DNA from: a virus
DNA: 64,000 nt
IMG/VR virus record: IMGVR_UViG_3300022752_000026
Coordinates: 1 to 64,000 of that record
Direction: 5' to 3' (one strand)
Below the pieces are notes generated by a model. The model saw only the letters and a program-made list of their open reading frames with translations, was not told where the DNA came from and did no database searches. Made by a program: the position numbers and the translations under genes. How positions within the stretch are numbered: the first letter of the stretch is position 1; the number at the start of each line of letters is the position of its first letter. Of this stretch, positions 6,590 through 29,042 are shown in pieces.

Positions 6590-6829
6590 ATGGCACAGTA
6601 TGGAGTAAGTATCTTGGTAGATGAGGGCAAGTCTTATGGCTCAACTCCCTACTCTTTCGTAGTAGATACAAAGGAAAATGTAAGAGACCTACTACTAAAG
6701 ACCACCGCACCTATCACAGAGGTAATCGTGATGGAAGAGGCTTACGGCAAGGAAGCCCGTATGATGAGCGCAGAGGAAGTGCTGGGTATTGTTCTCAACC
6801 ACCCACGAATGGCACTATCACTAGCCTAA
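6590..6829 (+). CDS. Small early hypothetical protein
   Basis: AAAGGGA RBS before ATG 6590; has its own promoter and terminator. Confidence 0.75.
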   Translation: MAQYGVSILVDEGKSYGSTPYSFVVDTKENVRDLLLKTTAPITEVIVMEEAYGKEARMMSAEEVLGIVLNHPRMALSLA

Positions 6830-6843
6830 AAGTCTTAGCAGAG

Positions 6844-6867
6844 AAGCCCCCGCATGGGGGCTTTTTT
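6844..6867 (+). terminator. Intrinsic terminator
   Basis: AAGCCCCC-gcat-GGGGGCTT followed by a T tract. Confidence 0.85.
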
Positions 6868-6905
6868 GTTGCCTAAAGTATGACTGGTCATCTACCCTTT
6901 ATGGC

Positions 6906-6933
6906 TTGACAAGTCTAAAGTGTTTGATAGTCT
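6906..6933 (+). promoter_or_regulatory. Early promoter
   Basis: TTGACA-16-TAGTCT. Confidence 0.7.
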
Positions 6934-6976
6934 TTAGGTGTTAGGAAAAAGTAAAACCTAACAAAGGGGGAAAGAA

Positions 6977-7126
6977 ATGGAAATCAGAATAACGGCAAAC
7001 CTAACAACTAAAGAAAAGGAAACCTTACAAAAGGTAGGAGATACTTTAGAGGGTGTGGCTAATGTAGTAGTCAAGGCTCTACAAGTAGCAGAGAAGCCGA
7101 TTAGGTTATGGTCTAAGTTCTGGTAA
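6977..7126 (+). CDS. 49 aa early peptide (not in ORF track)
   Basis: AAAGGGGG RBS; MEIRITANLTTKEKETLQKVG...RLWSKFW; sits between a promoter and a terminator. Confidence 0.7.
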   Translation: MEIRITANLTTKEKETLQKVGDTLEGVANVVVKALQVAEKPIRLWSKFW

Positions 7127-7138
7127 AAGGCTCGCAAG

Positions 7139-7163
7139 AAGCCCCCCGCAAGGGGGGTTTTTT
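7139..7163 (+). terminator. Intrinsic terminator
   Basis: GCCCCCC-gcaa-GGGGGGT followed by a T tract. Confidence 0.85.
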
Positions 7164-7199
7164 GTTATCAAAATGTTATCTAAATCACCTAAAATAAAC

Positions 7200-7228
7200 T
7201 TGACACGCTTACCCGCATAGCATAGTAT
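7200..7228 (+). promoter_or_regulatory. Early promoter
   Basis: TTGACA-17-TAGTAT. Confidence 0.8.
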
Positions 7229-7261
7229 TTACTCACAAGCACAAACAAAGGGGGAAACAAA

Positions 7262-7444
7262 ATGCTAGACACAATCACACAGGACACAGAGTTTGATTAC
7301 GGTATGGGTCTAAAGTTAGAGGGCTCAAATGTTCAACCACTAAAGGTCAATAAAAATGCTCGCTATTGCGAGTGTGGCACTAAACTCTCAATGTATAACC
7401 TAGAGAGCAAGTGCTACCGCCACCTAGCGGGCATAGCGTTCTAA
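7262..7444 (+). CDS. Small Cys/His zinc-binding early protein
   Basis: CECGTKLSMYN...CYRH; RBS AAAGGGGG. Confidence 0.7.
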   Translation: MLDTITQDTEFDYGMGLKLEGSNVQPLKVNKNARYCECGTKLSMYNLESKCYRHLAGIAF

Positions 7445-7450
7445 GGCGAG

Positions 7451-7475
7451 AAGCCCCCCGCAAGGGGGGCTTTTC
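7451..7475 (+). terminator. Intrinsic terminator
   Basis: AAGCCCCCC-gcaa-GGGGGGCTT-TT. Confidence 0.85.
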
Positions 7476-7515
7476 TATGCCCGCAACTATGTGCTATAAA
7501 ACACACCTTTATAGT

Positions 7516-7544
7516 TTGACAAATCTACCCCTATGTAATACTAT
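7516..7544 (+). promoter_or_regulatory. Early promoter
   Basis: TTGACA-17-TACTAT. Confidence 0.8.
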
Positions 7545-7574
7545 TAGGTCATAACAAAGAGAAAGGGATAGGAA

Positions 7575-7739
7575 ATGAAAGGACTACCTGATAGCGCAGT
7601 AGTAGGCACATACAAACGCCTACACCGCAAGCCAAAGCGTAGTGCTAAGAGCAGAGAGCATTACCAAAAGGAAGCAGACTTTTGGAACGCTATCGTGTTC
7701 TCGGTTGTAGATGTCTTGAAGCCAAAGCGCAAAAGATAA
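7575..7739 (+). CDS. 54 aa basic peptide, ADFWN family copy 1 (not in ORF track)
   Basis: MKGLPDSAVVGTYKRLHRKPKRSAKSREHYQKEADFWNAIVFSVVDVLKPKRKR; paralog at 13592-13753. Confidence 0.85.
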   Translation: MKGLPDSAVVGTYKRLHRKPKRSAKSREHYQKEADFWNAIVFSVVDVLKPKRKR

Positions 7740-7746
7740 CCGCAAC

Positions 7747-7775
7747 TTGACAAATCCTATCCTCTTGTCTAAGGT
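7747..7775 (+). promoter_or_regulatory. Early promoter
   Basis: TTGACA-17-TAAGGT. Confidence 0.7.
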
Positions 7776-7803
7776 TATGACAAAGAAAGGATAAAAGGAT
7801 AAA

Positions 7804-8439
7804 ATGACAAAGATAAACTTCAGGACAAATCCTGAACAACTAAAGAAAGCGCACTCCGCTAGGGAAATCAACAGATACCCGCGAGTGAAAACAAACCCGC
7901 GACTAGCGGGCGAAATCAACAAAATTGGACAAGTGCTACCGCAGGAAATGGCTGACTTGCTAAAGTCGCTCAACACCGAAAGTAGAAATGGACTTGTTCA
8001 TGCCCTCACTAAGAAAGGCTGGACACAGGCGAGTATTGGTAAAGCGTTAGACCTATCACGAGAAAGTATTAGACAAATCGTGAGAGGAACTACCGCGACA
8101 CCCGTATCACCTGAAATCGTGATACCTGAACCACCACGCTATCCAATGCCTACACAGGTTCAATACACAATGCCAAACCCTGAACTCCTAGCGAGGCTAA
8201 AGGAACTTCAACCTTTCGCTCAACAGGTTCGCTCATCAAGTAAAAAGTTTAGGGCAGAGGCAGAGGAATACTCATACCTGCTCAATCAGGCAACAGAGCA
8301 AGGCGTAACAGTTTATCGTCTAGCAAAGTTACTAGGCGTTACTCCGTCCGCTATTCAATTCCGACTTGTTCGCTATGGCTACCGCAATAGTGCTGGCGAA
8401 AGCAAGTCATACCAAACAATCAAGAAAGAGAACAGATAA
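7804..8439 (+). CDS. Double HTH DNA-binding protein (paralog family)
   Basis: LTKKGWTQASIGKALDLSRESIRQI and QGVTVYRLAKLLGVTPSAIQFRLVRYGY; clearly similar to 46351-46911. Confidence 0.8.
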   Translation: MTKINFRTNPEQLKKAHSAREINRYPRVKTNPRLAGEINKIGQVLPQEMADLLKSLNTESRNGLVHALTKKGWTQASIGKALDLSRESIRQIVRGTTATPVSPEIVIPEPPRYPMPTQVQYTMPNPELLARLKELQPFAQQVRSSSKKFRAEAEEYSYLLNQATEQGVTVYRLAKLLGVTPSAIQFRLVRYGYRNSAGESKSYQTIKKENR

Positions 8440-8443
8440 CTAG

Positions 8444-8797
8444 ATGAAGCCAAGAGCGTGTTCCCAATGCGGGGACTGGTATAACCCTAAGTTTCAGGGA
8501 ACTGAAAGCCTATGTGGGAAGTGCCATCTCAAAGAAGTCATCAAAGAAAAACAAAACGAGGCGGAGGGGAGTGATTACCAAAAAGTAAAAACTCCCCGTC
8601 CGGCAACCCAAACACAAACAACTCATCAACCTGAACCAAGACTCAGGCGTGGAGAGTCAGAGTTCAGAGGCGAGTGCGCTAAATGTGGATTATGGCTTGA
8701 AGGCTCGGAGGTCTATAACAGAGAACGAGGCTGGATTTACAAATGGGTTCATGTTGATTATGACCGCACACGCAGGGACTACTGCTTAGTAGCATAG
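8444..8797 (+). CDS. Zinc-finger hypothetical protein
   Basis: CSQC...CGKC and CAKC motifs. Confidence 0.65.
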   Translation: MKPRACSQCGDWYNPKFQGTESLCGKCHLKEVIKEKQNEAEGSDYQKVKTPRPATQTQTTHQPEPRLRRGESEFRGECAKCGLWLEGSEVYNRERGWIYKWVHVDYDRTRRDYCLVA

Positions 8798-8817
8798 TCA
8801 AATAAACGCCAACGAAG

Positions 8818-8843
8818 AAGCCCCTGATTTCTCAGGGGCTTTT
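8818..8843. terminator. Terminator between convergent transcription units
   Basis: AAGCCCCTGA-tttc-TCAGGGGCTTTT. Confidence 0.75.
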
Positions 8844-8918
8844 CGCTGTTCTAAGTTGTTGTCCTTCCTAAACCTAACAACTCGTGTGTCAAGTTTAGTT
8901 CACAACGAGTGCGACTAT

Positions 8919-9389
8919 TTAGTCAGTTACCTTTACTGAAGTTCCTGCGAAGAGACGCTTGATTAGTTCCGCGTCATCAACCCGCACAGAAGTTTCATCG
9001 CAAGGGCAGAATTCTGCGAGCGCCCTGCGTGTTCCATGACTCAACCAACCCGGCTGGTCTTCATAACCACCATCAAACCCAAGTTGATAAAGTCTTTCTT
9101 GTACCAAATAAACAGAACGAGAGTTTCGTGAAATTGCCTCAAACTTCAGACTAGACAACAAAACAACTTCGTCATCTGCAAAAGTATCTGGCGCTGCCGC
9201 TGCAAACTTTTTACTTTTTGCTGGCTTTTCTTCCGGCACAACAACCGGCACATCTGCAACAACTTCTGGAGTTGTGAAGATTGCTGGTTCTGGTTCTGGC
9301 TCAACTACGATTGACTCCACCGCAACAGGCTCAATTACTGGTTCGTAATAAGGCTGTGGGTCTGGAGTTACGACATCATCATTGTTCAT
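8919..9389 (-). CDS. Acidic Pro-rich protein with a C-terminal peptidoglycan-binding-like domain
   Basis: SRSVYLVQERLYQLGF...PGWLSHGTRRALAEF fits the PG_binding_1 three-helix pattern; coupled to the transglycosylase gene. Confidence 0.6.
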   Translation of the reverse strand: MNNDDVVTPDPQPYYEPVIEPVAVESIVVEPEPEPAIFTTPEVVADVPVVVPEEKPAKSKKFAAAAPDTFADDEVVLLSSLKFEAISRNSRSVYLVQERLYQLGFDGGYEDQPGWLSHGTRRALAEFCPCDETSVRVDDAELIKRLFAGTSVKVTD

Positions 9390-9994
9390 TGTGAAAATCC
9401 TTCTGGGAAGAGTTGATACCAATGCTGAAATCTTACCTCATCACGATTAGTGTAAGGGGCTGAAATCTTCCAAGAAGTCCAATCCTCCCCACCATTACTC
9501 ATGTGATACGCAATCTCAGCGTTGATTACTGGGTCAAACAAATCTTTGTTTGAGTCTAGGTCATACTTGTCTCGGCGCACTACACCAAGACCACCAATCA
9601 TGTTGATTTGGAAGATGCCATAGGAAGAGTCGCCTGTCCGTGTGTTGCCATTGAAAGCAAGGGGGCGACCATTGGATTCTTTCTTCACGACAGCCCACGC
9701 AGTTCTGAGAGCCTTGCCCTCAAAGCCAACCGCAGAGAGCAGTTGTGCGAGTTCTACATCGGAGAACGGGGTTTTCTTTACTGAGAACTTCTTTAGTTGA
9801 AGTTCGGCTAGTTTTGCTTTTTGTGCTTCTATTTCTGCCTCTACAGCCTTTTGAGTTATAGCCTCTTTAGCCTGAAGTTTGGCAACATTTTCTATTCCTG
9901 AAGTTTGGGCAAAAGCCGAGACGACAGACAGAAAAGTTACTGACAATGCCACCGCAGTTATTTTTTCAATGGCTTTGTTAGTAGGTTTTAGCAT
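9386..9994 (-). CDS. Secreted lytic transglycosylase (SLT/lysozyme-like)
   Basis: N-terminal signal/TM segment; AWAVVKKES (catalytic Glu), SYGIFQIN, LFDPVINA and GEDWTSW motifs. Confidence 0.85.
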   Translation of the reverse strand: MLKPTNKAIEKITAVALSVTFLSVVSAFAQTSGIENVAKLQAKEAITQKAVEAEIEAQKAKLAELQLKKFSVKKTPFSDVELAQLLSAVGFEGKALRTAWAVVKKESNGRPLAFNGNTRTGDSSYGIFQINMIGGLGVVRRDKYDLDSNKDLFDPVINAEIAYHMSNGGEDWTSWKISAPYTNRDEVRFQHWYQLFPEGFSQ

Positions 9995-10223
9995 TGATTT
10001 TCCTTTGTTAGGGGACAGGGACAGGTGCTGTGGGAGCCACCTTTATCGGCGTCAAATACCCGCCTTATTCCCCCCGCTGTGGGGAGATGGTTGTGTTACA
10101 ACCTTTCTTTCTAATGCTTCCTTATGTCTAGGTCGCTATGTCTTACTGGATTACCTTAGCACAGAAAAGTCAGACAAGTGGCGATTTCGGGGGTGAAAGT
10201 CGCCACTTTGTCTAACCCGCGTC

Positions 10224-10685
10224 TTACTTCCCGAAAGCCTGTCGGCAGACCGGACCAAGACCTAACTCACGACTTGTTTCGTCTGTGAGTTCAGCACCAC
10301 ACTTGGCACAGCAAGAGTAGTGAACAGCGAACAACTTGGCATACTTGTATGGGTCGCCAAGCAAAACACGCACAAAAGCGAGCGTATCTTCGGGTGCTGG
10401 CTTGATACGAGAGAAGCCTCCGTATGCGCCAAGCAGACGGCGAAGGTATGTGGTCTTCTTGAACTCACGAATTTCAACGAAGACAAGGTCATTATCAACA
10501 GGTTGAACCATGTAATCACCCATAAGTTCATTTGTTGGTATGGCGTATTTAGATTTAGGAAGTTTAGAAAGTGCCTCATAAAGTTCCTTCCAATTGAACT
10601 TTAGGGCTGGATTTGCGACAGGCGCAACAACCGCAGGTGCGGGAGCAGGGTTCTCACCAAAGAGAACCAATTGTTGTGTGGTCAT
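10224..10685 (-). CDS. DUF6011-like zinc-binding protein
   Basis: C-terminal CCAKCGAELTDETSRELGLGPVC. Confidence 0.75.
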   Translation of the reverse strand: MTTQQLVLFGENPAPAPAVVAPVANPALKFNWKELYEALSKLPKSKYAIPTNELMGDYMVQPVDNDLVFVEIREFKKTTYLRRLLGAYGGFSRIKPAPEDTLAFVRVLLGDPYKYAKLFAVHYSCCAKCGAELTDETSRELGLGPVCRQAFGK

Positions 10686-10804
10686 TGTGTGACCCCCTTT
10701 CAAGACAGAACAATACTACAATCCAAAATAAAAGTCAAGACGACACGCAGTAAGAAGCCCCCCACAAGAGGAAGGTATGTGGAGGGCTTTGCCTTGAACT
10801 TTGT

Positions 10805-10957
10805 CTAGCGTTCCCTGCTTGCGAGCGTCGCGCTCGTCAAAGCCGAGAATCCTAGGGCGATAGTCCAAGGAACTGAATTCTGCCATGCCGCGAGAAAAGA
10901 CGCAAGTCCGAAGACTAACGCTCCTACCGCAGTCCAAACTACATTGAGGTTATTCAT
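10805..10957 (-). CDS. Small two-TM membrane protein
   Basis: MNNLNVVWTAVGALVFGLASFLAAW...; start overlaps the stop of the upstream HTH gene. Confidence 0.65.
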   Translation of the reverse strand: MNNLNVVWTAVGALVFGLASFLAAWQNSVPWTIALGFSALTSATLASRER

Positions 10958-11160
10958 TGAGTCGTCTTCTTCCTTTTGGGGCTTGTGCGTCCTTTGACGC
11001 GGGCTGATGGGTCTCGCAGAGGTGTTCCGCGACTTTTGATTGCCTTGCGAGCGCAACGATACGAAACCTTTAGTTCGCTTGCCACACTCTCAATAGACAA
11101 CCCCTCCGCATAAAGGCGGGAGGCGTCATCAGCAATTCTTTTACTTTTTGTTGAACTCAC
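10954..11160 (-). CDS. Small HTH DNA-binding protein
   Basis: LYAEGLSIESVASELKVSYRCARKAIKSRGTPLR. Confidence 0.8.
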   Translation of the reverse strand: MSSTKSKRIADDASRLYAEGLSIESVASELKVSYRCARKAIKSRGTPLRDPSARVKGRTSPKRKKTTQ

Positions 11161-11165
11161 GACTT

Positions 11166-11639
11166 TTACTCCTCGTCATAAGGTCTTTGTTTTGCTCCCA
11201 TGATTACTTCAGGGTCTAAACCTTTTGACCGCAACCACTCCTTGTTCTCAGGGTCTTGGGGGTCATTGACTACATGACGACCCTCGTTCCATGTGAAGAA
11301 AGATGTCGTGCCCTCAGGAAGAACCCAGAGGTGATACTGATTTGAGGTATCAACAAGTTGGCTTTCGGGTGGGAAGATTTCTACTGCCTCTCGTTCCGCG
11401 CCCGCGAGTTCGTTCTTGATACGCTGGAAGTGTCTCCAGTCTCTAATCGCCTTTCGTTCGTTGTGGCGAATAGAAAGATGGATACCACTCTTGTCCCCTA
11501 GTTCGGGTTCAAGTATGTGCTTGATGACTGTATAGAACTTGTTTTTCCAGATAGTTTGATTAGGGTCAAGTGTTACCTCGTGCCCATTTACAACCGCAGT
11601 TGCTTCTACAAACTTATCCCATGTTGGCTTGTTCGTCAT
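11166..11639 (-). CDS. Conserved phage hypothetical protein
   Basis: HLSIR...DWRHFQRIKNELAG...EAVEIFPPESQLVD...YHLW, a widespread phage motif. Confidence 0.75.
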   Translation of the reverse strand: MTNKPTWDKFVEATAVVNGHEVTLDPNQTIWKNKFYTVIKHILEPELGDKSGIHLSIRHNERKAIRDWRHFQRIKNELAGAEREAVEIFPPESQLVDTSNQYHLWVLPEGTTSFFTWNEGRHVVNDPQDPENKEWLRSKGLDPEVIMGAKQRPYDEE

Positions 11640-13031
11640 ACTTTTGGATTGTCCTTTATCTTTTTCACAATGCGATACACCGCATAAGCCACAACACCTG
11701 CGATTAGTGCTGGTGTATAGACGGATACATTGAAGAAGTTAGATGAAACCTCAATCCACTCAAACTGGCACTTGAAGTCGCAATTTGCCTCCGCAATAAC
11801 TTGTGTAGTTTCCATTAGTTCACCTCCTCTGCTATTTGGTTATACATCTCTGTGGCAGAAACATTTGACGGGAATTCAATAAGACTCATACCTTCTCCGG
11901 CAACTAAGAAAAGTGCCGACTCAACCGCATCATAGAGTTCTCTTTTTGCTTCAGGGTCTAATTCGTTGGAAACACTATCATCATCAAGACCTAAACTGTA
12001 GAACTCGTTGGTAAGTGCTTCTCTTAGTTGGAATTGCTTTTCTGGGCTATCTGTTTCTTGCGCCCAACTAAGAGTTAGACCGCAGGAAGCGAGCGCATCT
12101 AAAACTAAAAAGGTAGATACTGGCTCCTTCAACTCGTTAGATAACGAGTCAGTAAACTCTTCAACTAAATCCGCATAGACATTTGTCTCTCTGTCTGTCA
12201 TTTTCTTTCTCCAACTACTTTTTCCCATTCCAACTCAACCAACTCTTGGCGTAGTTGTTTGTTCTCCCGCATCAACTTCCCGTAGGCGTTGATGGAAACT
12301 ACCATCACGAAGCATGAACCTGCGAGCGCGATAATGATTGCGAATAATGTTCCTGTGTCTAAAACCATTTTTACTTTTTCCCTCCTAGTGATGGAAGCGG
12401 AAGATTTCTAACATACTCCCTCCGCGCTTCTCTTGTTGGCAAAGCGTCTCGTTCTGCTAACTGCTCCTGCGTCATGTATGTGAACTTCAATAAGAAATCC
12501 GCAAAGTCGTTATCTGAAATGACCGCAAGGTCTTGTCCAAACTTTCCTTTGTTCATTACTTCCCCTCTCCAAAATAACAAGTAATCATGTCTCCCCAGCA
12601 ATAACCCTCTTCGCCACCGACCCACCATAGGTTTCCTGAAACCTGAAGCAAGCCCCACACAAGCGCACCTGCGAGCGCGAGAGCGATAACAAACGCAACT
12701 CGTCTGCGTTGTATGTATTTCTTTTCCATCTTCATTACTATTGCCATCTTCTTAGCCCTTTCTCTAAGTTTGACTCCTTTGAGCCAATAAGATAATAATA
12801 CCAACTTCCCTGACTTTTTTCAACTTACCTGACTTTCGGCGTGTCGCCCGCAGAAAGATAGATGGGGGTGCTTTTTACTTTTTGGTTAGCACTTTCTTCC
12901 TCCACGCAACCCCACTCCACATAAGCGCACTTGTCCCAATAACAACGGGTAGCAAAGCACATCTCATCACCGCAGGGGCAATCTATCCACTTAGCGTCCG
13001 CATCACACTTGGAGCAAGTGGTCGCTTCCAT
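11636..13031 (-). other. Run of coupled small early genes (11636-11815, 11815-12201, 12198-12368, 12371-12556, 12556-~12747, 12825-13031)
   Basis: Overlapping stop/start codons and GGAG/GGGG RBS; several are single-TM or Cys-rich proteins. Confidence 0.65.
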
Positions 13032-13579
13032 TACTCGCCCTTAGCGGGTAGGGATAGCAACCACTTCTCAAAGGTTGAGTTGAACAAAGCGTAGTCGCTT
13101 CGCTTGTCTCGGATTAGGCAGATTGCTTCTTCCGCAGAGTAGCCCTCTTTCATAAGAACCAATGCCATGATTAGCCCTGAACGATTGAGACCTGCTTGGC
13201 AACGAATAAGAACTTTCTTACCCGACTTCCAATCTTCGTGAGCAATCCGCACAATTTGGAATAACTCCTTGAAGTCAATCCCACTCATGTTCGGGCTATC
13301 GTAAAACGGATAGCGTATTTCTTTTACTAGCCAATCCGCAGGGTTTGCGTATTGGTAGGCAGTAATTACTGTATCAAAGTCTTCTTTAGTAATCTGCGCT
13401 CCCTCACGCTTGCTCTCCCAAATTGTGTCGTCATCATCTGTTCCACCTTGAAAAAGGTTTGGTAAGACTTCACTCCACAATTCATTAGGGTAGTCAATCG
13501 CTTCGTATTGAGGCGCGATACCTAAGTCGTCAATGTCGTCTATCTCTGTCCATGTTGTCTTCGTCATTTTTTCCTCCAT
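13031..13579 (-). CDS. Dual-specificity/protein-tyrosine phosphatase family protein
   Basis: GKKVLIRCQAGLNRSG is the CX5R active site; followed by AEEAICLIRDKR. Confidence 0.9.
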   Translation of the reverse strand: MEEKMTKTTWTEIDDIDDLGIAPQYEAIDYPNELWSEVLPNLFQGGTDDDDTIWESKREGAQITKEDFDTVITAYQYANPADWLVKEIRYPFYDSPNMSGIDFKELFQIVRIAHEDWKSGKKVLIRCQAGLNRSGLIMALVLMKEGYSAEEAICLIRDKRSDYALFNSTFEKWLLSLPAKGE

Positions 13580-13591
13580 TTCCTTATTTTA

Positions 13592-13753
13592 TCATTTTGT
13601 TTTTGTTTTGGCAAATCCTAATACCGCATTAGCAATAGCGTTCCAGAAATCTGCTTCTCTCTGATACTGCGCCCTTGACTTGTAAGTAGCCTTAGGCTTA
13701 CGGCGCATACGCTTGTATGTTCCGACTATTGCGCTATCTGGTAAATACTTCAT
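13592..13753 (-). CDS. 53 aa basic peptide, ADFWN family copy 2, leaderless (not in ORF track)
   Basis: MKYLPDSAIVGTYKRMRRKPKATYKSRAQYQREADFWNAIANAVLGFAKTKTK; promoter TTGACT-17-TATACT ends 6 nt before the ATG. Confidence 0.85.
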   Translation of the reverse strand: MKYLPDSAIVGTYKRMRRKPKATYKSRAQYQREADFWNAIANAVLGFAKTKTK

Positions 13754-13759
13754 AACTGA

Positions 13760-13788
13760 AGTATAGCACTTTCTTTTAGAAAAGTCAA
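13760..13788 (-). promoter_or_regulatory. Early promoter (representative of many minus-strand copies)
   Basis: TTGACT-17-TATACT. Similar promoters at 10710-10738, 14021-14049, 14490-14518, 14923-14951, 15504-15532, 15868-15895, 16465-16493, ~18735-18762, ~27555-27583 and ~29868-29896. Confidence 0.8.
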
Positions 13789-13789
13789 A

Positions 13790-15480: not shown

Positions 15481-15597
15481 AGTGTCCCCCCTTTCTTTCT
15501 CTAAGTATAACACCGCAGTAAATAAAAGTCAAGTATCTATAAAAAGAAAACTCCCCCGCGCCAAACCAAACGCGAGGGAGTCTCCCACCCGACCCGA

Positions 15598-19886: not shown

Positions 19887-22383
19887 TTACTCAAAGTCAA
19901 ATCCATCTTCACTATCTTCTTCAGCGTCTTCTTTTGGAAACAACTCCCTAAGGGGCATTATGTCCAGCATTTCTAGGTGTTCTCTGAAACAAAGAACTAG
20001 ACACTCGTGGCACTCTTTAGTCGCCATGAATTGTTTGGCTATGCCCTTTTGGTAGAACGCCTCAACCATGTCGCTTATGGCTCTGATTTCCCACTCAAAG
20101 AGAACAAGTTTTGTATCGCGTTCATTTTTACTTTTTGCTGACTCACACATTGGTATCCAGCGAGTTGCTCTAGTTATTTTGATTTCGCCATCTTCAGTTG
20201 TGTTCTGTTCTGTGGCGATTGGCTCGTATTGGTGTAGCCCTGTCTTTAGGACTTTATCTACTTTCGTAAAAGAGATTGCTCTGTCTTTATCTTCCATAGT
20301 CTCTCTGTAAGTAAGAGAGAAGCCCCTACCACTTTGGATAGGGGCTTCCCAACTTTTCACTTATTTGCTCCTGTTAGAGCAAGGAGAGTAGCAACTGCCT
20401 CGTCAAGGCTTGCTTCGTTCTTGTGTTGTGGAGTTTTCATCACTTGAACGATTTTGTCTGTGGTGTGTTCAGCGAACACATCAACAAGGTGTGGATTTGC
20501 TTTTAGGAGTTCCTCTTTGTTGAGGTTCTCGCGTGTCTGTGTTCCAATAACTACAACTGGAACTCCAGCGATTGTTCCCTCTGTGGCAATACCAATCCAA
20601 GAAGAGCCAACCTTTTTGTAGCCGAGAAGTGTGTAGAGTTCTGCTTGCGCTTCTTCATACGCCTTTTCTGCTAGTGCTTTTGTGCGTTTTGCGCTTGCTA
20701 GAAGTTCAAGGGCTTGCTTAGCCTTTTTCGCTTCCGCAGGTGTCTTGTCTAGAACCTGTGTAGTTGAAACTTCAACTACTACTGTCTTTTTAGACATTTG
20801 CGTCCTTTCATCTTTTAGGAGAGAAACCTTTTCACTCCTTTGCGTAAGAGAGTTACACTCACTTACAACTCCAAAGATACTCGCATTATTCCGCCAAGTC
20901 AAGTCCAAACAAGGATTTGCTTATGTGTTTTACATCACATAGTATTAGCCCTCGTCAGATACAACCTGCTGGGCTATCTCAACGAAATCTTCGGCTGCCG
21001 AACCCTGAAAGTGCCACTCGCCATTTTCGTAGGTCTCAACAACTTCAGACCATTGTTCGTCTGTAATGAACAATCCGTTTTGGTATCCCTCAACTGTTGC
21101 TTTGTCCCAATAGGCGACAATCAACTCGGTATCAGGTTCGTATGCTTCCAACTGCTCTAGTAGTTCTTTGACTTTCATTTTTACTTTTTGCTTCCTCTCT
21201 TAGGCTACTGCGAGTTCCGAGTTGTTCGGAGTTCGCACTTCTCTTCGCGGTTTGTGTGGGCGTGGAACATCTCCAACCCAATCGCAAACCAATCCGTCAT
21301 ACATGTCCTGCCATAAACCAAAGTCTTCTTTTATTTCCCACCCGCATTTCTTACACACAATCATTTTTACTTTTTCCTTTCCTTGCCGTTAGAAGTGAAA
21401 ATCAACGGGAACTAGATACTGCTTATTTGGTTCAAGGGCGAGCCGATTTCTAAAGAACTCTAGGTTTGCCGAACCCTCTTTCAAGTCATAGACGCCCGTA
21501 TCCGAACACCAATCGTTTGATAAAAGTTTCCCTAGTCGTGCCAATGTCCAAGCACTCATACCTGTGCCGTAGTCAAACTTTTCGGGGTTGTAGTTCTCAA
21601 TCATCTTGCCAATGTCAAACCCGTCTTTTGTTATCTCCGCTAAGTATTTTTCCATTTCCTTTTTACGATACCCAGCGAACTCTCTGATTATGTCGTCAGC
21701 AAGAAGTGGGTTCTCCGCATAGCAGAGAGCGTTCCGTTCTTCTTCCCAGCCCTCAAACAATCCGTCCCACCTGCCACCGACCTCATGCCAATCAGACCAA
21801 GTTGGATACGGGTCTTCTGAATAAGTTATTTGGCTTTTGACTTCGCCAATAGCGTCCTCGCCACTTTCTGCTTCTACCAACATTATTTGGCAAACGTGCA
21901 TTTTGTTCCTCCCTCTCTTACCCCTATTGTAATCATTTATTCTGAAAAGTCAAGTTCCCCATTTATGATTTTTTCAGAGTGCGCTCTGTCTCTTAGATAG
22001 ACCTCTGCGACTTTCAATGCCTCGTCTAGTTCATGCTCTACCGCGTCTAAGTGTTCGCCAAAGCAATACAAATCAAACCAAGAGTTATTTATCCAATCAA
22101 GAAGTTCTTGGTCGTTCGCCAATTTCAATGCGTCATCTGTGTCTATGCCCGCGTCAATGAAATCTGTTGGCGAGAACAAACTAGAAACAATTTCTCCTTG
22201 TGGTGCGTCCAAGAGATTTGCTCTTGTCTCTCCATCACAATAAACATCTACTTGAAATCCTTTGTATTCAACTGTTGCTATACAACCCATACCTGTATAG
22301 AAAATAGCGTCCTGTTGTGATGGGTGTGGGTCAAAGCCTAAGTGATACTTTATTTTTATTTCATCATCTGTCATTGTTGTCAT
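19887..22383 (-). other. Early hypothetical genes (19887-20297, 20357-20797, 20945-21178, ~21205-21365, 21389-21901, 21937-22383)
   Basis: ORF track and RBS. 21389-21901 has WSDWHEVGGRW and VPVDFHF motifs common in phages. Confidence 0.65.
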
Positions 22384-22505
22384 TTGTTTTCCCCTTTTAC
22401 TTTTTAGATGTGTTGGCTCGGCTCTGTGGTGAGAGACGAAAGAGCAGGTTGTCTATTTTCGGAAGGACACTCCTGTCTATCACCGAGCCAACACCTGTTA
22501 GAACA

Positions 22506-24299
22506 TTAGGCAACTGCCCTCTGTCCAACTCTTGTCATTACTTCCATAGCAGAGCGACCAATAACTTCGCTTGCTTGAACAGGGTCAGTAATCTCTGAAA
22601 CAACTTTGGCATAGCCTTGACCGAGTTCTCGCGCTCTGTATCCATTATCAAATGGCAACCATAGAACGCCAACACCTGCTTTTTCGCACTTCTTGATAAT
22701 CTCTTTTGCTAATCGTGTTTCGTCTGAAGTGTATTCTCCATCTGAAACAATAACTAACAATCGTGCGCCATTTCCATGAAGTAGATTTAGTGCGCCATCT
22801 ATTGCTTGAAATGCTTTGTAGAACTTTTCAGTTCCATCACTAGCAGTATAAACACTTACCTGCTCTAGTTTCTGTCCAACCTTTAGTGTTGGGAATACAT
22901 CATTTCCGTAATAGACCATAGCGCACTTACCTTGTATGCGCCGAGTTGCTTCGGACATAACCCACGCAGTTGTCGCCATTGGCTTCATAGCAGAACCCAT
23001 TGAACCTGAAATGTCGCACATGATACCTACTGAAAGAGTTGGTTCGTCTGTGTGCTTGCGAACTCTTTTACGGAAAGGATTTTCGTCCTTATACACACCG
23101 CGAGCGCGGAGTGCTTTGTTCTGAATAATCGCTTTCGTGCGAAGTTTTCCCGGAGGAGTTGCGCTCGCAATAATCATTTCATCTCTCTCACGATACTTTG
23201 CTTTTTCAAGGAGACGAGAAATGATTACGGAAGCAGAACGCTCTTGTGGAGTTGCGTCTCTCTGTTCTACTAATCTGCTATTTGTTTTTGTAGTTCCGGG
23301 ACCTGTTGATTTGCTAAATACTTGTCCAGCAACTTCTTTGTTGTCTGCTTGTTCCTTAGCCTCATTGTGCTTGGCTTCTGCTCGTTCCTTGAAGTCCTCA
23401 CCGAGTTCTTGGTCTGCTAAATCATCATAGTTAGCAATCTCAACTGCTTCCCCTGCTTCTCCAAGTTTTTCTAGGATTTCCTCTACTAACTCTTTTGGCA
23501 TAGGAAAACCGCAACCGCCTGTTTCAGGATTTTCGTTCTCACCGCGTTCTTTCATAAGATTGCGAACTAACTCTGCCCATGCTTTTGCTAATGGGTAAAG
23601 GTCTGTTGCGTCTTTATGATTTGCGTGAAGTTGGAAAGGACGAATAATGTCGCAGAACTTTTCAACATTGTCTGCGCCAATCTGTTCCTCAACCCACTTG
23701 TAAATGTCTGCTACTTCGCGTTGGTCTAACACGCCAGCGATAACGCGACCATGAACAAGACCAATCAACTGTGCGATTGCTTTTGTAGGTGCTTCTTTAT
23801 CAAATGCTTCTCTAGCGTCTCCAATCGCTAACTCCAACGCACTAGAGCGTAGGAATACGCGAGAGCGAGAGTTTGCTTGAACTCCTTGATACTCAATGCG
23901 ACTTTCTTCCAACAAGTTCAATGCTTCATACTCGTCTCGCTTTAGTTCTCTGTGTGCGTCAGGCATAGACCACAATGAGAAACGAGCGTGATAGGCTTCG
24001 TGCGAAATAGCACCTGTCGCCAATGGAAACTCGTATTGTGTTTTGCGAAGTGTTATGTCGCCAATCTTTTCAGGATTGACACCTGTTCCGAAAACTTTTT
24101 CTACAACGACTTCAACTTCTGCGAGCGCAGGATTGAAACGAGCAGGTGCTTCTCCACCGCCAGCGTTTGTTCCTACATACGCAATAATGTCGTCTCGCAA
24201 AGCCAAACGATTTGTTAGCGTTGCGATTTCTCTACCAACTTTCAACCACTCTCTTGGAGTGTCTTGAAACTTAGTCTCACCACTTACTAAATGTTTCAT
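22506..24299 (-). CDS. VWA-domain protein with N-terminal HEXXH metallopeptidase-like domain (CobT-like)
   Basis: AISHEAYH...LNLLEESRIE; MIDAS motif CDISGSMG; VIVSDGE. Confidence 0.85.
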   Translation of the reverse strand: MKHLVSGETKFQDTPREWLKVGREIATLTNRLALRDDIIAYVGTNAGGGEAPARFNPALAEVEVVVEKVFGTGVNPEKIGDITLRKTQYEFPLATGAISHEAYHARFSLWSMPDAHRELKRDEYEALNLLEESRIEYQGVQANSRSRVFLRSSALELAIGDAREAFDKEAPTKAIAQLIGLVHGRVIAGVLDQREVADIYKWVEEQIGADNVEKFCDIIRPFQLHANHKDATDLYPLAKAWAELVRNLMKERGENENPETGGCGFPMPKELVEEILEKLGEAGEAVEIANYDDLADQELGEDFKERAEAKHNEAKEQADNKEVAGQVFSKSTGPGTTKTNSRLVEQRDATPQERSASVIISRLLEKAKYRERDEMIIASATPPGKLRTKAIIQNKALRARGVYKDENPFRKRVRKHTDEPTLSVGIMCDISGSMGSAMKPMATTAWVMSEATRRIQGKCAMVYYGNDVFPTLKVGQKLEQVSVYTASDGTEKFYKAFQAIDGALNLLHGNGARLLVIVSDGEYTSDETRLAKEIIKKCEKAGVGVLWLPFDNGYRARELGQGYAKVVSEITDPVQASEVIGRSAMEVMTRVGQRAVA

Positions 24300-24443
24300 T
24301 TCTTTTTCCCTTTTCTGTTAGTGGCTTCCGAACCACTAATAACCAAAGTATCCCATTTTGTATCCTTTTTGTCAAGTTGGGGGAAAGGGGGTGGGGCAAG
24401 GACACTCAACCCACCCCCCGCGTAGCCCGCGTATCTAAGGGGG

Positions 24444-25505
24444 TTAGATTTTCGCGGGCTTTACTTCCTCACCGAAAGCGCGAGATAGAACATCAGAGAT
24501 ACTCGCCCTGTCGCTTTCAGGTGCGGAAGAGATTAGATTTTCTAGCGCAAACTTAGTTCCGAAAGTTGTTGCTATGTCGCGGAACGCAAGGAGTTCTCGC
24601 ATTTGTGGCGACCAAGAAACTTCGTTCGCAAGTTGCTTGCGATAGAGATTTTGTGCCGAAGTGATTAGCAGACTTGGAACACCCAACTTCTTAGCGAGTG
24701 TGTAGTCAGTAGTCATTTCTGCTTGAAGTGTGAAGCGAGAAAGTAATGCTTCCGACAAACGAACTCCGGGAGCATTTGGATTTGTCGCACTCACTACAAA
24801 GAAGTCAGGGTGTGCTTTTACTACACCGCGTTCAGGATTTGTAGAGACAACAACTTCTCTGCGTCCGTCCATAGCACCATAAAGGATTGCTAGAACCTTT
24901 GGGTCAATCAAACCAATCTCATCTACGAAATAGATTTTGCCCTGTTCCATAGCGCGAATAAGACCGCCATCAACCCACTCAAAGTTTCCACTTGGAGTTT
25001 GGACATAAGAACCAATCAAGTCAGACGCTTCAATGTCGCCATGTCCAATCAAGGTTTCCATGTTGTCTCCGAAAGTTGCTTCAACGAGCGCAGTTTTTCC
25101 TGTACCTGGCGCACCGAACAACAATGGGAACATAGGTGCGATTTCTTCACCTGCGAAACTTCTCTTTGTAGTTGCGTAAGCAAGTTTTAGAACTTCAACA
25201 TCTTTATGCTCTCCCCATAGGCGAGCATGATAGATAGAACCATTTGGTCGCTTGAAAGTATCAGCACCACCAACGATTGCTTCTACCATTGGAAGTTCCT
25301 TTCTAACTTTAGAACCGCGTGGGGCGCGTTCTGCGCCAACTGCTCTCTCAACATAACGACCTGTTGGTAGAACTTTAGAAGCAAGTTCCTTACTTGCTTT
25401 TTCATTTAGACCTTGACTTGCTACCTGCTCAATGATTTCCCATAGAGTAGGTGAAGCGTTAGGTGTTAGAACGCCATAGCGTTCTTTTGCTTTTACATCA
25501 TACAT
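24444..25505 (-). CDS. MoxR/CobS-like AAA+ ATPase
   Basis: Walker A GAPGTGKT, Walker B YFVDEI, HPDFFVVSATNP, ALLSRF. Confidence 0.9.
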   Translation of the reverse strand: MYDVKAKERYGVLTPNASPTLWEIIEQVASQGLNEKASKELASKVLPTGRYVERAVGAERAPRGSKVRKELPMVEAIVGGADTFKRPNGSIYHARLWGEHKDVEVLKLAYATTKRSFAGEEIAPMFPLLFGAPGTGKTALVEATFGDNMETLIGHGDIEASDLIGSYVQTPSGNFEWVDGGLIRAMEQGKIYFVDEIGLIDPKVLAILYGAMDGRREVVVSTNPERGVVKAHPDFFVVSATNPNAPGVRLSEALLSRFTLQAEMTTDYTLAKKLGVPSLLITSAQNLYRKQLANEVSWSPQMRELLAFRDIATTFGTKFALENLISSAPESDRASISDVLSRAFGEEVKPAKI

Positions 25506-25519
25506 AAGTTTAGCCCCCC

Positions 25520-25978
25520 TTAGACTAACTCTTTAGGAAAGCCAAGTGCTTTCCGCGAAATACCTACACGATAGAGAACACGACTTGGAGTAGTTCCCTT
25601 TGCTAAATCGTCAGCGTCAAACTTTGATACTTCAACCAAGATAGGTTCTTGGCGAATAATCCAGCCATGCTTTGTCATTTCATCAAAGAAAGAGAACGCA
25701 TAACGCATACGATTTTCTGTGAAGTCAGAGATTTTTTCGTCCTCAAGTTTTACCCCTACTGCGACATACTCTTTGACTTGTTCGTGGCGAAGCGAAGTGC
25801 TACGCCATTGTTTCTTTAGTGAAGCAGGAGTAACTACTCGTCTATGGATTGCCATAGGAGTAAGTGTTCCTACATTTGTATAACAATCAGGTGTGATTAG
25901 CATTTGCGTTGTTTCGCCAGCCCTTACGAACTCGGCATAAACCGCAACCCCCTGAACTTTTGCTTCTTTGTCTAACAT
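25520..25978 (-). CDS. Hypothetical protein upstream of the AAA ATPase
   Basis: AAAGGA RBS before ATG 25978; TTGACA/TATACT promoter at about 26025-26050. Confidence 0.65.
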   Translation of the reverse strand: MLDKEAKVQGVAVYAEFVRAGETTQMLITPDCYTNVGTLTPMAIHRRVVTPASLKKQWRSTSLRHEQVKEYVAVGVKLEDEKISDFTENRMRYAFSFFDEMTKHGWIIRQEPILVEVSKFDADDLAKGTTPSRVLYRVGISRKALGFPKELV

Positions 25979-26101
25979 GGTGTCCTTTCGTATTTGTGTC
26001 CTTGTATTCAGTTGTATCCCCAAGTATAACTATTTTTAGCAGATTGTCAAATCGTAGAACAAGTGTGTCGGGTAGGGGGTTTCCCCCCTAACCAACCAAT
26101 A

Positions 26102-26344
26102 CTACTCTTTTTCTACTGCTTTGTCAAATTGAGCGTCAAGGTCGTCTTCCATTACTGATTGGTAGATTTCAGCCCTCTGTTGCTCATCTGATTTAGCGAG
26201 CGCATAGGCAACCGAAGCCCTATCCGCGTCCCCTGCCATCTCAACCGCACTCCAATCGTCTTCCGACCAATCGGAAGTTTCCACAATCACAATGCCATCT
26301 GCGTTGCCATAGTTTCCATCTATGGCGAAGTATGAAGTTGCCAC
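26102..26344 (-). CDS. Small acidic hypothetical protein
   Basis: GTG start immediately after an AAAAAGTAAAA motif. Confidence 0.7.
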   Translation of the reverse strand: MATSYFAIDGNYGNADGIVIVETSDWSEDDWSAVEMAGDADRASVAYALAKSDEQQRAEIYQSVMEDDLDAQFDKAVEKE

Positions 26345-26516
26345 TTTTACTTTTTCCTTTCTTTACTTGATTTCGTAGTCAGAGCAGATTTGCTCAACCG
26401 CATCATTGAGAGAGTTTATTAGCAAACTAACTTCGTGGTCGTTGAGATGAGCAATCATCTCATCTGTGATAGATGAACTCCACGCAACCCCTCTTATAGA
26501 TAAACGAGACATAACC

Positions 26517-27185
26517 TTATCCTTTCACTAGTTCTACATCTTTGACCGCAGAAACTTCAATGACTTTTTTAGCCCCCGGACAATCCGAATACCAATCATC
26601 AACATCTTCAGAGTTAGCGCAAGCGCACCCATCTACATTGTCTCGTTCTTCGTAGTCAGCGTGAGAGTCAGGTATGTCCCACTCTTTTTCTATGGAGTGT
26701 TCCCCATCTTGGAAAACATACACGCCACCGAAACCTTGTTCTTCTTCCCAATCTAAAGTTATTTCTAACTCTGGGTATTGAGAAGAAAGATTTTCAAGGG
26801 CTTCAATAGGTGGAGACCACGCAGTTTGAAATCTGTAACCAAGATTAGTTTCAGAGTCATTAGTCATTTCAGTATCAGAATACTTGTTGCTATCTGCTAC
26901 ACCAATGTCCCACTTAGTTCCCCACTCACGATTATTGAAGTTATACCAGTTGAACGCACCATCACCTTGTCGTTCTCCATCTGCGTAACCATGAACACCC
27001 TCATACTCTTCCATCTTGTCTTCAGGTGGGCGAACTATGTTCCAGAACGCAATAATCGGATTTGAGTAAGTCTGCGCCCCATCTTCAAAGTTGCGTTGGT
27101 ATGGCGCATTGAGTTGTGCTTTTACTTTTTGGATTTGCTCTTTGTCGCCATCTATGGACAAAGAGTTGAATACCCAGTTTGGCAT
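26517..27185 (-). CDS. DUF1281/YubB ferredoxin-like domain protein
   Basis: MPNWVFN...WYNFNNREWGTKWD...FQTAWSPP...YPEL. Confidence 0.85.
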   Translation of the reverse strand: MPNWVFNSLSIDGDKEQIQKVKAQLNAPYQRNFEDGAQTYSNPIIAFWNIVRPPEDKMEEYEGVHGYADGERQGDGAFNWYNFNNREWGTKWDIGVADSNKYSDTEMTNDSETNLGYRFQTAWSPPIEALENLSSQYPELEITLDWEEEQGFGGVYVFQDGEHSIEKEWDIPDSHADYEERDNVDGCACANSEDVDDWYSDCPGAKKVIEVSAVKDVELVKG

Positions 27186-27386
27186 TAGTTCTCCTCCCCA
27201 AATGGTTCTGTGTCCCACTCGTAACTAATAAGGTTCTTTCCATCAACAAGTGGCTTTACTTTTTCTTTCATAAACTTGTATGCGAAGTAGTCATACGCAA
27301 CTCCATCAGCAAGTTCTAACTTTAGATAAATGGCGTTTGCCATCTTTGTCCCCTTTCTATAAAGACAATGCTAAGTATAAGGATTT

Positions 27387-27548
27387 TTATTGTTTTGTCA
27401 AGTCTTGTTCCAACAATGCTTTTCGTTTTTGTTCAGCACGGCTTTTGTTGCGCTTTGTTCTCTTGTCTGCGAATACGGCTATCCGTTGGTTCAGGACAAA
27501 GCGACCACGCCCCCGAACCAATCCGTCTAACTCGTTTTGCTTTTTCAT
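27387..27548 (-). CDS. 53 aa Arg/Lys-rich leaderless peptide (not in ORF track)
   Basis: MKKQNELDGLVRGRGRFVLNQRIAVFADKRTKRNKSRAEQKRKALLEQDLTKQ; TTGACA-17-TAAAAT ends 6 nt upstream. Confidence 0.7.
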   Translation of the reverse strand: MKKQNELDGLVRGRGRFVLNQRIAVFADKRTKRNKSRAEQKRKALLEQDLTKQ

Positions 27549-27863
27549 GCTCTCATTTTACAAGATGCGGTTCTCTTTGTCAAGATGGTGTAGTTGGACT
27601 TCCAGCAAATCCCGTTGAGCACATCACAACAACTCGCGGTTCTAGCCAGTAACCTTCCCTGTTTTTACTTTTTGGTAAGGGCACGCCGTTTGCGTTTTTA
27701 CTTTTTGGTGCGTACGCCTTCGCTGTGGCGACATCGCAACAACTTGCGGTTCTACACCAGCAGCGGGCTGCATCGCGTTATGTAAGAGCGAGCCGTTATG
27801 TGCGTACAGCAAAAACGACTTGCCGTTATTACGACAAGCCGTTCTTGGTCTTAGAGAAAGGGA

Positions 27864-29042
27864 TTACGCAGACTCTAGCGACACACGCCGTTTCCAGCCC
27901 TCGCCACTAATGCGAATTCGGAAAACTTCCTCAAACGCTTTAGCAACCATGTCGGTTATGTCTGTGTAATTTTCATCGGCTTCTCTATTGAGCGAGCCGA
28001 CATTTGGGATAGACGGCACATCGGAGTCCTCTGTGTAGTCGCCCAATACTAGAACTCTGTCGCCTGTCCAGCGACCAGAGATGTCGGTTTGTGGAAAGTC
28101 TCCACCACCGCGAGCAGGACTTGTCATCATCAAGATGTACATAGCGTCTGCTAAAGACCCGCCGCCATTGACGGCAGTATGTTCATACTGCTTTAGACCT
28201 AAGCCCAAGCCGTGTGGATTTACTACTTCTCTCTTATCAACATTGACAAGAACATGATACTGACCCAATCTATTTACCCCTTTATCTCTACACGAACCGC
28301 CTCGTGCAATTCGTTGTATTTCATCATAGTATACGCGTCATCAACAAAATTGTCAATAGCGTGGTCTACTAATTCCTCATCTGTAAGACGGGTGTCTAAG
28401 TTTTCGTTGACTAAGTCCTCGTCAAATTCAAATTCAATCTTGGCAATAATTTTGCGACCCACAATTATCCCTTTCTCGTATTTGGTGTTTGTTTCTACTC
28501 TGTGAGTGATAGATGTTTTTCTCATAGCGCAAGGCTATCGTCATACTCATCCTCATCATCAAATTGACCTATGAGTGTTTCAAAACCCTCGTTAGGGTCG
28601 TCTACATTAGTAGTAACCGCGTTGATAAAACGTAGAGAGCACGAGTCATCAAACCACTCTTGTAAAGTTTCAAACATTTTGTCAGGCGACATTTCGTCTG
28701 AAGTAATCAACGGGTCATAACCATAAGTCCGCATTAGTTCTACTTGCTCATCATCCATGAGCAAATAAATTTTGTGGCAGGTGTCCCACGCAATTGCTTT
28801 AGCGTCAACTACTCGCTCTTTGACTAAGTCAAAAGTAATAGGCATTACGCCACCTCCAACTTCTGACCAAACCCTAAACCGAGTTTGTTAGTTGAGTAAG
28901 TCTGATAATCAGACTCGCACATAAAAGCCCATGGTCCCATTTTTGTTTGTGCGTCATACAGCGCAGGGGCGCCGCAGAAATCGCAGTTAGGAATCTCCGA
29001 TACTTTCGCAGTATTCACTTTGTCTCCTTTCTCTAAAGACAA
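27864..29042 (-). other. Four early hypothetical genes (27864-28268, 28274-28525, 28522-28845, 28845-29042)
   Basis: Coupled ORFs. MGQYH...GRWTGDRV and CDFC...YDAQTKMGPWAFMC are recurrent phage motifs. Confidence 0.7.

Follow-up and report, generated by a model that had tools for sequence, protein, structure and literature searches.

Why should a virus carry 50 copies of one pentanucleotide on one DNA strand and three on the other within about 10 kb, irrespective of the direction in which the genes of that region are read? The question is raised by a block of early genes in IMG/VR virus record IMGVR_UViG_3300022752_000026, a viral contig of 124,941 bases from lake water that IMG/VR classes as linear and whose completeness is estimated by CheckV at 86%. 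The stretch analysed here, hereafter referred to as the window, consists of bases 1-64000 of this contig, and the word in question is CCGCA on its + strand. A sequence-only reading of the window had reported about 50 CCGCA against about 3 TGCGG in the dense part of the array, about 15 further copies up to 29 kb, and about 10 in the rest of the window. We show that selection maintains the word, in the form TGCGG (mostly TGCGGT), on a single strand, namely the one that is sense for the portal gene, and does so largely through synonymous sites; the word is therefore seen as CCGCA on the + strand of the window. The block with the selected word spans 10-25 kb of early genes. The word is probably read by a direction-sensing DNA machine.

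A recount bore out the earlier numbers, giving 50 CCGCA and 3 TGCGG in 6200-16300 (the counts for 6700-16300 are identical), 16 and 3 in 16301-29000 (1.26 CCGCA per kb), and 11 and 19 in 29001-64000. One CCGCA and three TGCGG are present in 1-6199, and the + strand of the whole window contains 78 and 28 copies, respectively. Within 6200-16300, CCGCA is the top strand-asymmetric 5-mer; the core CCGC is also polar (75 vs. 12), as is, more weakly, the variant CCGCG (14 vs. 2). Across the whole 124,941-base contig, the CCGCA excess is confined to the early block, where 66 copies are spread over ~22 kb; the non-coding border of this block contains none. The parts of the block are as follows.

6012-6481: motif-free non-coding border region, from the sequence.
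6482-8797, + strand: six small genes with sigma-70-like promoters and terminators, in which the motif lies on the same DNA strand as in the minus-strand genes.
6705-16214, + strand (TGCGG on the - strand): dense part of the array, 50 CCGCA against 3 in the opposite orientation, from counts and shuffles.
8919-29512, - strand: early small-gene block encoding an SLT lysozyme-like protein, a dual-specificity phosphatase, an AAA ATPase with a CobT-like protein, and several proteins with domains of unknown function.
16301-29000, + strand: thinning tail of the array, 16 CCGCA against 3 TGCGG, from counts.

The excess survives dinucleotide- and codon-aware shuffling in the window, and codon-aware shuffling in the relatives described below. 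In 6200-16300, dinucleotide shuffles contained 7.4 +/- 2.7 CCGCA (maximum 14, n=500) and synonymous-codon shuffles within genes 24.8 +/- 2.9 (maximum 35, n=1000), against the 50 observed; since the latter keep the 10 intergenic copies fixed, the coding part amounts to 40 observed versus ~15. Codon permutation of the same region gave 18.7 +/- 3.0. In the minus-strand genes, 25 of 35 copies read xxT-GCG-Gxx, which corresponds to a synonymous choice of the alanine codon GCG. Among alanine codons in the T_G context, GCG accounts for 25 of 33 in the array block and for 26 of 470 in the remaining genome, where GCT is dominant (352/470), and the word is thus written mainly via synonymous choice. The plus-strand genes and spacers in 6200-8900 contain 11 CCGCA and 1 TGCGG, with 1.3 CCGCA expected and none of 1000 shuffles reaching 11; three of the 11 are loops of a single terminator family. 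The polarity is therefore independent of gene direction, as had been claimed from the sequence, and the same holds in the relatives. Together, the shuffles and the two gene directions place the signal at the DNA level, where it goes with the physical genome orientation and not with transcription. An RNA-level signal was considered and rejected, because the plus-strand gene part keeps the word on the same DNA strand, such that it would read UGCGG in some mRNAs and CCGCA in others.

The array is a property of a phage group. The nearest named phage is DSL-LC01, a metagenome-assembled genome with a 74% identical portal protein, for which, in the part of its description considered here (PMC10611076), an actinobacterial host is predicted only and no genome ends are reported. 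In the 20 kb directly upstream of its portal gene, 100 TGCGG and 24 CCGCA are present. We further collected 80 related IMG/VR loci (portal 73-98% identical) and made counts in the 34 that extend 5 kb or more beyond the portal gene on its upstream side, leaving aside 46 shorter ones. TGCGG is in excess upstream of the portal in all 34 loci (from 13/5 to 45/7) and downstream of it in none, and the array occupies the same map position in the 34 contigs and in DSL-LC01. Counted on the portal-sense strand with crude gene calls, TGCGG and CCGCA number 417 and 70 in portal-sense open reading frames (ORFs), 213 and 6 in antisense ORFs, and 235 and 32 in intergenic regions. Two related records, G001 and G002, carry the array at the portal-upstream map position only, except that G002 repeats it at a chimeric end. 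Comparison with related genomes, which the sequence-only reading had proposed, thus found the array in all relatives examined down to ~47% portal identity; it is absent from Gordonia phage Forza, the portal of which is 39% identical.

Synonymous shuffles and pooled counts were based on 27 of the 34 loci; the remaining seven (L016, L018, L036, L065, L082, L084, and L085) were judged from their counts and motif lists to be near-duplicates of other loci, and identical rows are shared only by L064 and L065. In the 27 loci, TGCGG was observed 305 times in portal-sense ORFs versus 143 +/- 10 in the shuffles, and 197 times in antisense ORFs versus 64 +/- 7. Pooled, the arrays contain TGCGG 748 times against 54 for its inverse, again the top 5-mer, and the following base is T in 54% of the copies and rarely C (TGCGGT, 406 vs. 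12). The spacing is irregular, with a median of 192 bp and no period. AGCGG is weakly polar in the same arrays (130 vs. 82), and portal-side controls show the reverse, ordinary coding bias (38 vs. 104). The array stops sharply 2.0 kb upstream of the portal start. As to density, the sequence-only reading had described a fall from the border at 6.2 kb. This was found in the pooled relatives only, where the density (profiled without L065, the duplicate of L064) peaks at the border with 5.2-5.9 copies per kb in the first kb; in the window itself, the peak lies at 12-16 kb (14 and 11 copies per 2 kb).

A comparison of terL, the gene for the large terminase subunit, supports the view that the density of the array is set by place and not by gene. 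In DSL-LC01, terL lies inside the array and contains 11 TGCGG, several of them at synonymous positions of conserved residues, whereas its orthologues outside the array contain 0 (G0), 0 (G1), and 1 (G2); the higher G+C content of the DSL-LC01 gene (62% vs. 44%) explains part of this difference.

Other words share the region. In the pooled arrays upstream of the portal gene (loci L007-L081), CGCTCGC (96 vs. 3) and GATTG (420 vs. 83) are also strand-biased, and GCGAGCG follows CCGCA at two sites of the window, near 12085 and 14995. An A/T-rich word, TTTTTACTTTTT (AAAAAGTAAAAA in gene sense), stands directly upstream of many early genes in window positions 6245-30715 and, in contrast to CCGCA, flips with gene direction. 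The segments 7585-7693 and 13635-13743 form a 109-nt inverted repeat (73% identity), which reflects paralogous small genes on opposite strands.

The block is also marked by an extreme avoidance of palindromes, and the sequence-only reading had feared that the CCGCA excess might be a by-product of the avoidance of TGCA and AGCT. AGCT, GATC, and TCGA do not occur in the whole 125 kb genome, and ACGT, ATAT, GGCC, GTAC, TTAA, and TGCA are nearly absent from the 6.2-30 kb block. In the two halves of this block, 19 and 22 palindromic 6-mers were observed where 163 and 211 were expected, compared with 636 observed and 1673 expected elsewhere, i.e. ~0.1 of expectation in 6.2-30 kb versus 0.38 in the other regions, with sharp edges near 6 and 28 kb. 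A palindrome-poor block is also present in G001 and G002. DSL-LC01, however, carries the array without palindrome avoidance; the two features are therefore independent, and the feared artefact can be dismissed.

The position of the array relative to the ends of the genome was addressed through cultured phages. In Microbacterium phage Pumpernickel, whose portal is 62% identical, the early small-gene block forms an exact direct terminal repeat (DTR) of 19,963 bp with 0 mismatches, and Arthrobacter phage Atuin has an exact DTR of 17,312 bp, also with 0 mismatches, that is made of the homologous early block. Gene 1 of Pumpernickel begins 62 bases from the left physical end and is homologous to the window ORF at 30878-31792; gp40 and gp49 map to 10.2-10.6 kb and 7.98-8.39 kb of the window, such that three genes are colinear (tblastx). 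The gene for gp49 sits within the terminal repeat of Pumpernickel. The terminases are also related, and terminase sequence is held to correlate with end type in the part of PMC12315714 considered here. The corresponding features of the window are listed below.

5511-6011, - strand: double helix-turn-helix (HTH) protein, orthologous over its full length (35-39% identity) to the HTH protein whose gene neighbours the terminase gene in Pumpernickel and A3Wally.
5839-5873: step in k-mer depth, ~1x on the left and 1.7-2x on the right in 4 of 4 runs, from contig depths; read as the inner (portal-side) boundary of the repeat.
7804-8439, + strand: double-HTH protein encoded within the array, a paralogue of that at 5511-6011; 41% identity to Pumpernickel gp49.
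30878-31792, - strand: homologue of Pumpernickel gene 1 (tblastx), taken to mark the outer end of the repeat at ~31.85 kb.
58587-59996, + strand: large terminase subunit, outside the array and with 0 TGCGG; 56-60% identity to the Pumpernickel terminase in two aligned segments.
59993-62638: Prim-Pol/D5 (Prim-Pol plus D5_N) primase-helicase.

The k-mer depth of contigs matching this region steps up at ~5.84 kb in all four metagenome runs, which come from four studies: from 27 to 54 in run X1 (which may be the contig's own source sample), from ~5 to 10-11 in X7, from ~5 to 9-15 in X8, and from 59 to ~101 in X3. In X3, a contig covering 3432-10572 has a mean depth of 84.4, where ~87 is predicted with a step at 5.84 kb and ~69 with a step at 8.85 kb. 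These depths are contig means and not read depths, and they cover 20 kb, short of ~31.85 kb. Taken with the synteny to Pumpernickel, they make it very probable that a long direct terminal repeat of ~26 kb has been collapsed into ~5.84-31.85 kb, and because the array lies within it, a link between the array and the genome ends is reasonable. One assembled copy of such a repeat was proposed and rejected: the first and last 24 kb of G002 (a 160,704-base IMG/VR record) are merely 80-85% identical, which indicates a chimeric wrap-around of two related phages. The self-overlap of G001 is 758 bp at 96% identity, and of 47 contig starts of relatives, several lie 1.6-1.9 kb upstream of the portal gene without a common start sequence.

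Arrays are present inside the terminal repeats of the cultured soil phages, again on the portal-sense strand. Atuin contains 41 TGCGG and 5 CCGCA at 1.8-5.7 kb (6.1 expected; reached by 0 of 300 shuffles), with the minus-strand gene 4 accounting for 10 vs. 1, the 575-base spacer after it for 11 vs. 0, and the minus-strand block for 7 vs. 1. In A3Wally, the counts at 2-9 kb are 41 and 6 (0 of 300 shuffles), and Pumpernickel has a weak array at 4-10 kb with 22 and 3 (1 of 300 shuffles). Outside the terminal repeats the coding bias is reversed, e.g. 12 vs. 46 in Atuin. Atuin (L150) also has four TGCGG in a short tandem-like GCATGCGGTGG repeat at 16234-16305, ~1 kb from the inner repeat end, and two more within 70 bases of that end.

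Several known systems resemble this arrangement in part. The long terminal repeats of T5 (its first-step-transfer DNA) and SPO1 carry early or host-takeover genes. Those of the present group likewise are repeats of at least 10 kb made of small early genes with strong promoters, and like the first-entering DNA of those phages the block of the window is poor in restriction sites; at 17-26 kb the repeats are longer than in T5 and SPO1, in which, to our knowledge, no strand-polar pentamer array has been described. FtsK-orienting polar sequences (KOPS) and SpoIIIE recognition sequences (SRS) are comparable as polar words for a moving DNA motor that disregard gene direction and whose inverse is selected against. 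They are, however, chromosome-wide 8-mers that converge on dif and are read by a host translocase, whereas we found a local array, once per phage genome, and no such skew in three sampled actinobacterial genomes. The Chi words read by AddAB, AGCGG in Bacillus subtilis and GAAGCGG in Staphylococcus aureus, are very short and G-rich, share the core GCGG with the word found here, and act on the 3'-ended strand; the base before GCGG is T in the phages, the polarity of AGCGG in the arrays is weak, as noted above, and the likeness is one of sequence alone. Three further systems fit less well. Sites of the pac or cos type consist of few repeats beside the cut and not of 66 copies over ~22 kb. DnaG-type primases that use pentamers differ from the primase found here, which is of the Prim-Pol plus D5_N type and not of the zinc-finger/TOPRIM type. 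In the Type III bias of T7 and EcoP15I, the retained orientation stays at the expected frequency, compared with 5-7 times above expectation in the arrays.

The closest parallel is provided by phages LLS (20 vs. 3) and MD8 (32 vs. 0), in which oriented Chi sites are clustered terminally, and by P1, which has 50 Chi and requires RecBCD and RecA to recombine its terminal repeats (PMC12315714, of which a part was considered). In all of these, a short asymmetric word is enriched in one orientation and concentrated toward a DNA end, and is thought to turn a helicase-nuclease that enters at the end toward recombination that builds circles or concatemers, in P1 between terminal repeats. The phage arrays share the short asymmetric word in one orientation (50 vs. 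3 in the window, 748 vs. 54 pooled), independent of gene direction. They differ from LLS, MD8, and P1 in being confined to a terminal repeat of 17-26 kb and in the depletion of the inverse orientation; moreover, the word in those phages is the 8-mer Chi of the host, with RecBCD as its reader, whereas here it is a 5-6-mer without a known reader, and the sampled actinobacteria have neither RecC nor a signature of the word.

On these grounds, our tentative preference is for the possibility that the array is a Chi-like, single-strand polar signal that controls end resection and recombination of the repeat. An enzyme moving along the DNA from a genome end would read the word on one strand and be switched by it as by Chi, such that degradation of the 3'-ended strand by a helicase-nuclease would cease inside the redundant repeat. 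The surviving tail would then recombine with the other copy of the repeat, giving circles or concatemers, and unique DNA would be spared. For a 5-mer that is weakly recognised, numerous copies would be required, in keeping with a density of 3-10 per kb, and irregular spacing fits signals that act by density. The reading is supported by selection at the DNA level, by a density that is set by place, by the terminal-repeat setting, and by the arrays in the DTRs of cultured phages. TGCGG lies on the strand whose 3' end would be at the 5.84 kb terminus, i.e. in the orientation of Chi reading, and the same is equally true of CCGCA from the other end.

The putative reader could be either a host or a phage enzyme. 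Small actinobacterial genomes (1.2-1.4 Mb) were taken as host candidates, their link to the phage being presumed only. RecC was found in none of five such genomes, and all five contain two adjacent frames of ~1000 codons, each with a PD-(D/E)XK domain, which by their architecture are read as AdnAB-like; in two of the five genomes, the match to the second frame is interrupted by stop codons. Because this is the sole such enzyme found in these genomes, AdnAB is the host candidate; its closest studied relative is AddAB, according to the part of PMC5314763 considered here. On the phage side, G0, G1, G2, and DSL-LC01 share a conserved module of a Sak4-like AAA_24 protein, a Cas4-family PD-(D/E)XK exonuclease, and an SNF2 helicase, of which the exonuclease also occurs in A3Wally, Pumpernickel, and Atuin; this module may likewise act as the reader. 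An exact search of genome contigs for the phage tRNA-Gly gave no match, and a WhiB-based host search matched a single Streptomyces locus.

Several observations weigh against this Chi-like reading. TGCGG is neither over-represented nor skewed in three of three actinobacterial genomes (400 kb each from base 1; G+C 42%, 48.5%, and 72%), where it was counted 306/296, 298/345, and 974/835 times with observed/expected ratios of 0.91-1.09; the last pair is in line with words of the same composition, and the three are a class-wide sample that may not include the true hosts. These genomes thus lack the over-representation and co-orientation that Chi shows in a host chromosome. No Chi is known for AdnAB, which may be Chi-independent, as stated in the part of PMC5314763 considered, and in the corresponding part of PMC13000450, Chi is named in the reference list only. 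The phages possess recombination genes of their own, unlike the Chi-rich lambdoid phages of the LLS class, which have none (PMC12315714, in the part considered). The inverse word is depleted about two- to four-fold in the 27 loci (27 vs. 42 and 4 vs. 17), which Chi does not predict. The terminal repeat of the window genome was deduced from contig depths and synteny, not from reads. Finally, the array lies to the left within the terminal repeat of the soil phages and to the right, near the portal-side boundary, in the lake clade. The clades thus share the polarity of the array and not its closeness to a particular end; since the array adjoins different ends, either end may be the one attacked, and either TGCGG or CCGCA may be the word that is read.

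Another explanation, which we regard as somewhat unlikely, is that the array is a polar signal for translocation of the phage's own DNA, acting on the packaging motor, on a double-HTH partner, or in ejection, and that it sets direction, distinguishes the two identical ends, or slows the motor before the terminal cut. The confinement of the array to the terminal repeat in phages with known ends, its invariant polarity with respect to the portal/terminase map, and the shared terminase lineage are all consistent with such a role, and the 5'-3' strand, taken in the direction of travel, is the one that packaging motors mainly track. That the inverse word is depleted suits a guiding signal, as in KOPS, and a phage-encoded reader would leave no signature in host genomes. 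The double-HTH protein at 5511-6011, whose gene stands at the border of the array, could, on sequence grounds, be the partner that recognises DNA for packaging; paralogues of it are encoded inside the array (7804-8439) and at 46258-46911 and 58110-58583, one of which is directly upstream of terL. The form of the array argues the other way: known pac or cos repeats number 3-7 and lie within a few hundred bases of the cut, whereas here 40-100 irregular copies extend over 4-20 kb, mostly in genes, with none in the non-coding border 6012-6481, and the position within the repeat differs between the clades. This border does contain two tandem 32-bp direct repeats (6394-6457), each enclosing a GTTACT...AGTAAC palindrome, which may represent an operator, an origin, or an end-related site. 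Their iteron-like character has a bearing on a further, improbable explanation, in which the words are priming or start sites for one-directional synthesis across the repeat, with 5'-CCGCA-3' as the template for a pppGCGG primer, either for a lagging strand from a border origin or for duplication of the repeat before packaging. A pentamer with a 3-base core resembles phage primase sites (GGGTC-type in T7, GCA in SP6), strand polarity suits a fork that moves one way, and a primase-helicase is encoded at 59993-62638. Its Prim-Pol/archaeo-eukaryotic primase type is, however, not that known for such pentamers; full-length homologues were found only in Microbacterium phages among the matches listed (DSL-LC01 has 65% coverage), and the best 14 matches do not include Atuin, the phage with the densest array. 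Moreover, the background already provides a site every 2-3 kb, which leaves a local 5-10-fold excess unaccounted for.

Sites for strand-specific nicking or base modification of virion DNA, kept off the other strand to avoid double-strand breaks, would account for the confinement to one strand and for the depletion of the inverse word. T5, which these phages resemble in their long terminal repeat of early genes, carries one-strand nicks in its virion DNA. We nevertheless consider this quite improbable, since it does not explain selection for an excess of sites and no conserved nickase or methyltransferase was found when G0 and G1 were searched with the DSL-LC01 enzymes and the early proteins were scanned with Pfam; the scans of 20 early proteins revealed no nuclease. 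The sequence-only reading had included a modifying protein among the possible readers, and this now appears unlikely, as the three DSL-LC01 methyltransferases have no homologue in G0 or G1; the small endonuclease of DSL-LC01 gave one weak partial match, in G2. It is extremely improbable that the array is a by-product, be it of coding or composition bias, of palindrome avoidance, or of the evasion of a Type III-like, orientation-dependent restriction system. A single frame does account for the 25 of 35 copies in minus-strand genes, palindromes are strongly avoided in the block (19 observed vs. 163 expected), and a bias against one orientation is known for T7 and EcoP15I. Yet the enrichment survives synonymous shuffles, the word stays on one DNA strand in spacers as well as in genes of either direction and runs opposite to the ordinary coding bias of the portal-side controls, and DSL-LC01 has the array without avoiding palindromes; restriction evasion would explain the loss of one orientation but not the 5-7-fold gain of the other.

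In the course of these comparisons, the terminase of Pumpernickel (787 aa; L006, 27251-29614) was found to align to the 469-aa terminase of the window in two pieces, with ~270 extra residues between them, which look like an insertion, e.g. an intein or a homing element. Megablast of 6000-16500 against a phage collection gave no match.

A search of the published literature found no description of the TGCGG word or of such arrays in phages, and one on terminal repeats of freshwater actinophages found nothing relevant. New findings are the setting of the array in terminal repeats, its occurrence in cultured phages, the negative host-genome tests, and its independence from palindrome avoidance. 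For this lake phage group, which is abundant, the array provides a simple mark by which the terminal repeat can be located and genomes oriented in metagenomic assemblies. If the reader belongs to the machinery for packaging or ejection, the array would represent a novel type of polar signal, one with a long range that distinguishes two ends identical over ~20 kb. If it is a helicase-nuclease, the array offers a concrete candidate word and orientation for AdnAB, whose response to any Chi-like word is still in question according to the part of PMC5314763 considered. The three array-bearing phages in culture, Atuin, A3Wally, and Pumpernickel, have defined ends and tractable hosts, which makes the question directly testable at the bench. 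In its boldest form, which we think rather unlikely, the proposal is that TGCGG(T) is the first Chi-equivalent for AdnAB-class helicase-nucleases or for a phage Cas4-family resection module, and that an actinophage lineage has loaded its terminal repeats with it so that resection stops in redundant DNA and feeds recombination between the repeats. If this were true, phage arrays would reveal a regulatory word that is hidden from host-genome statistics.

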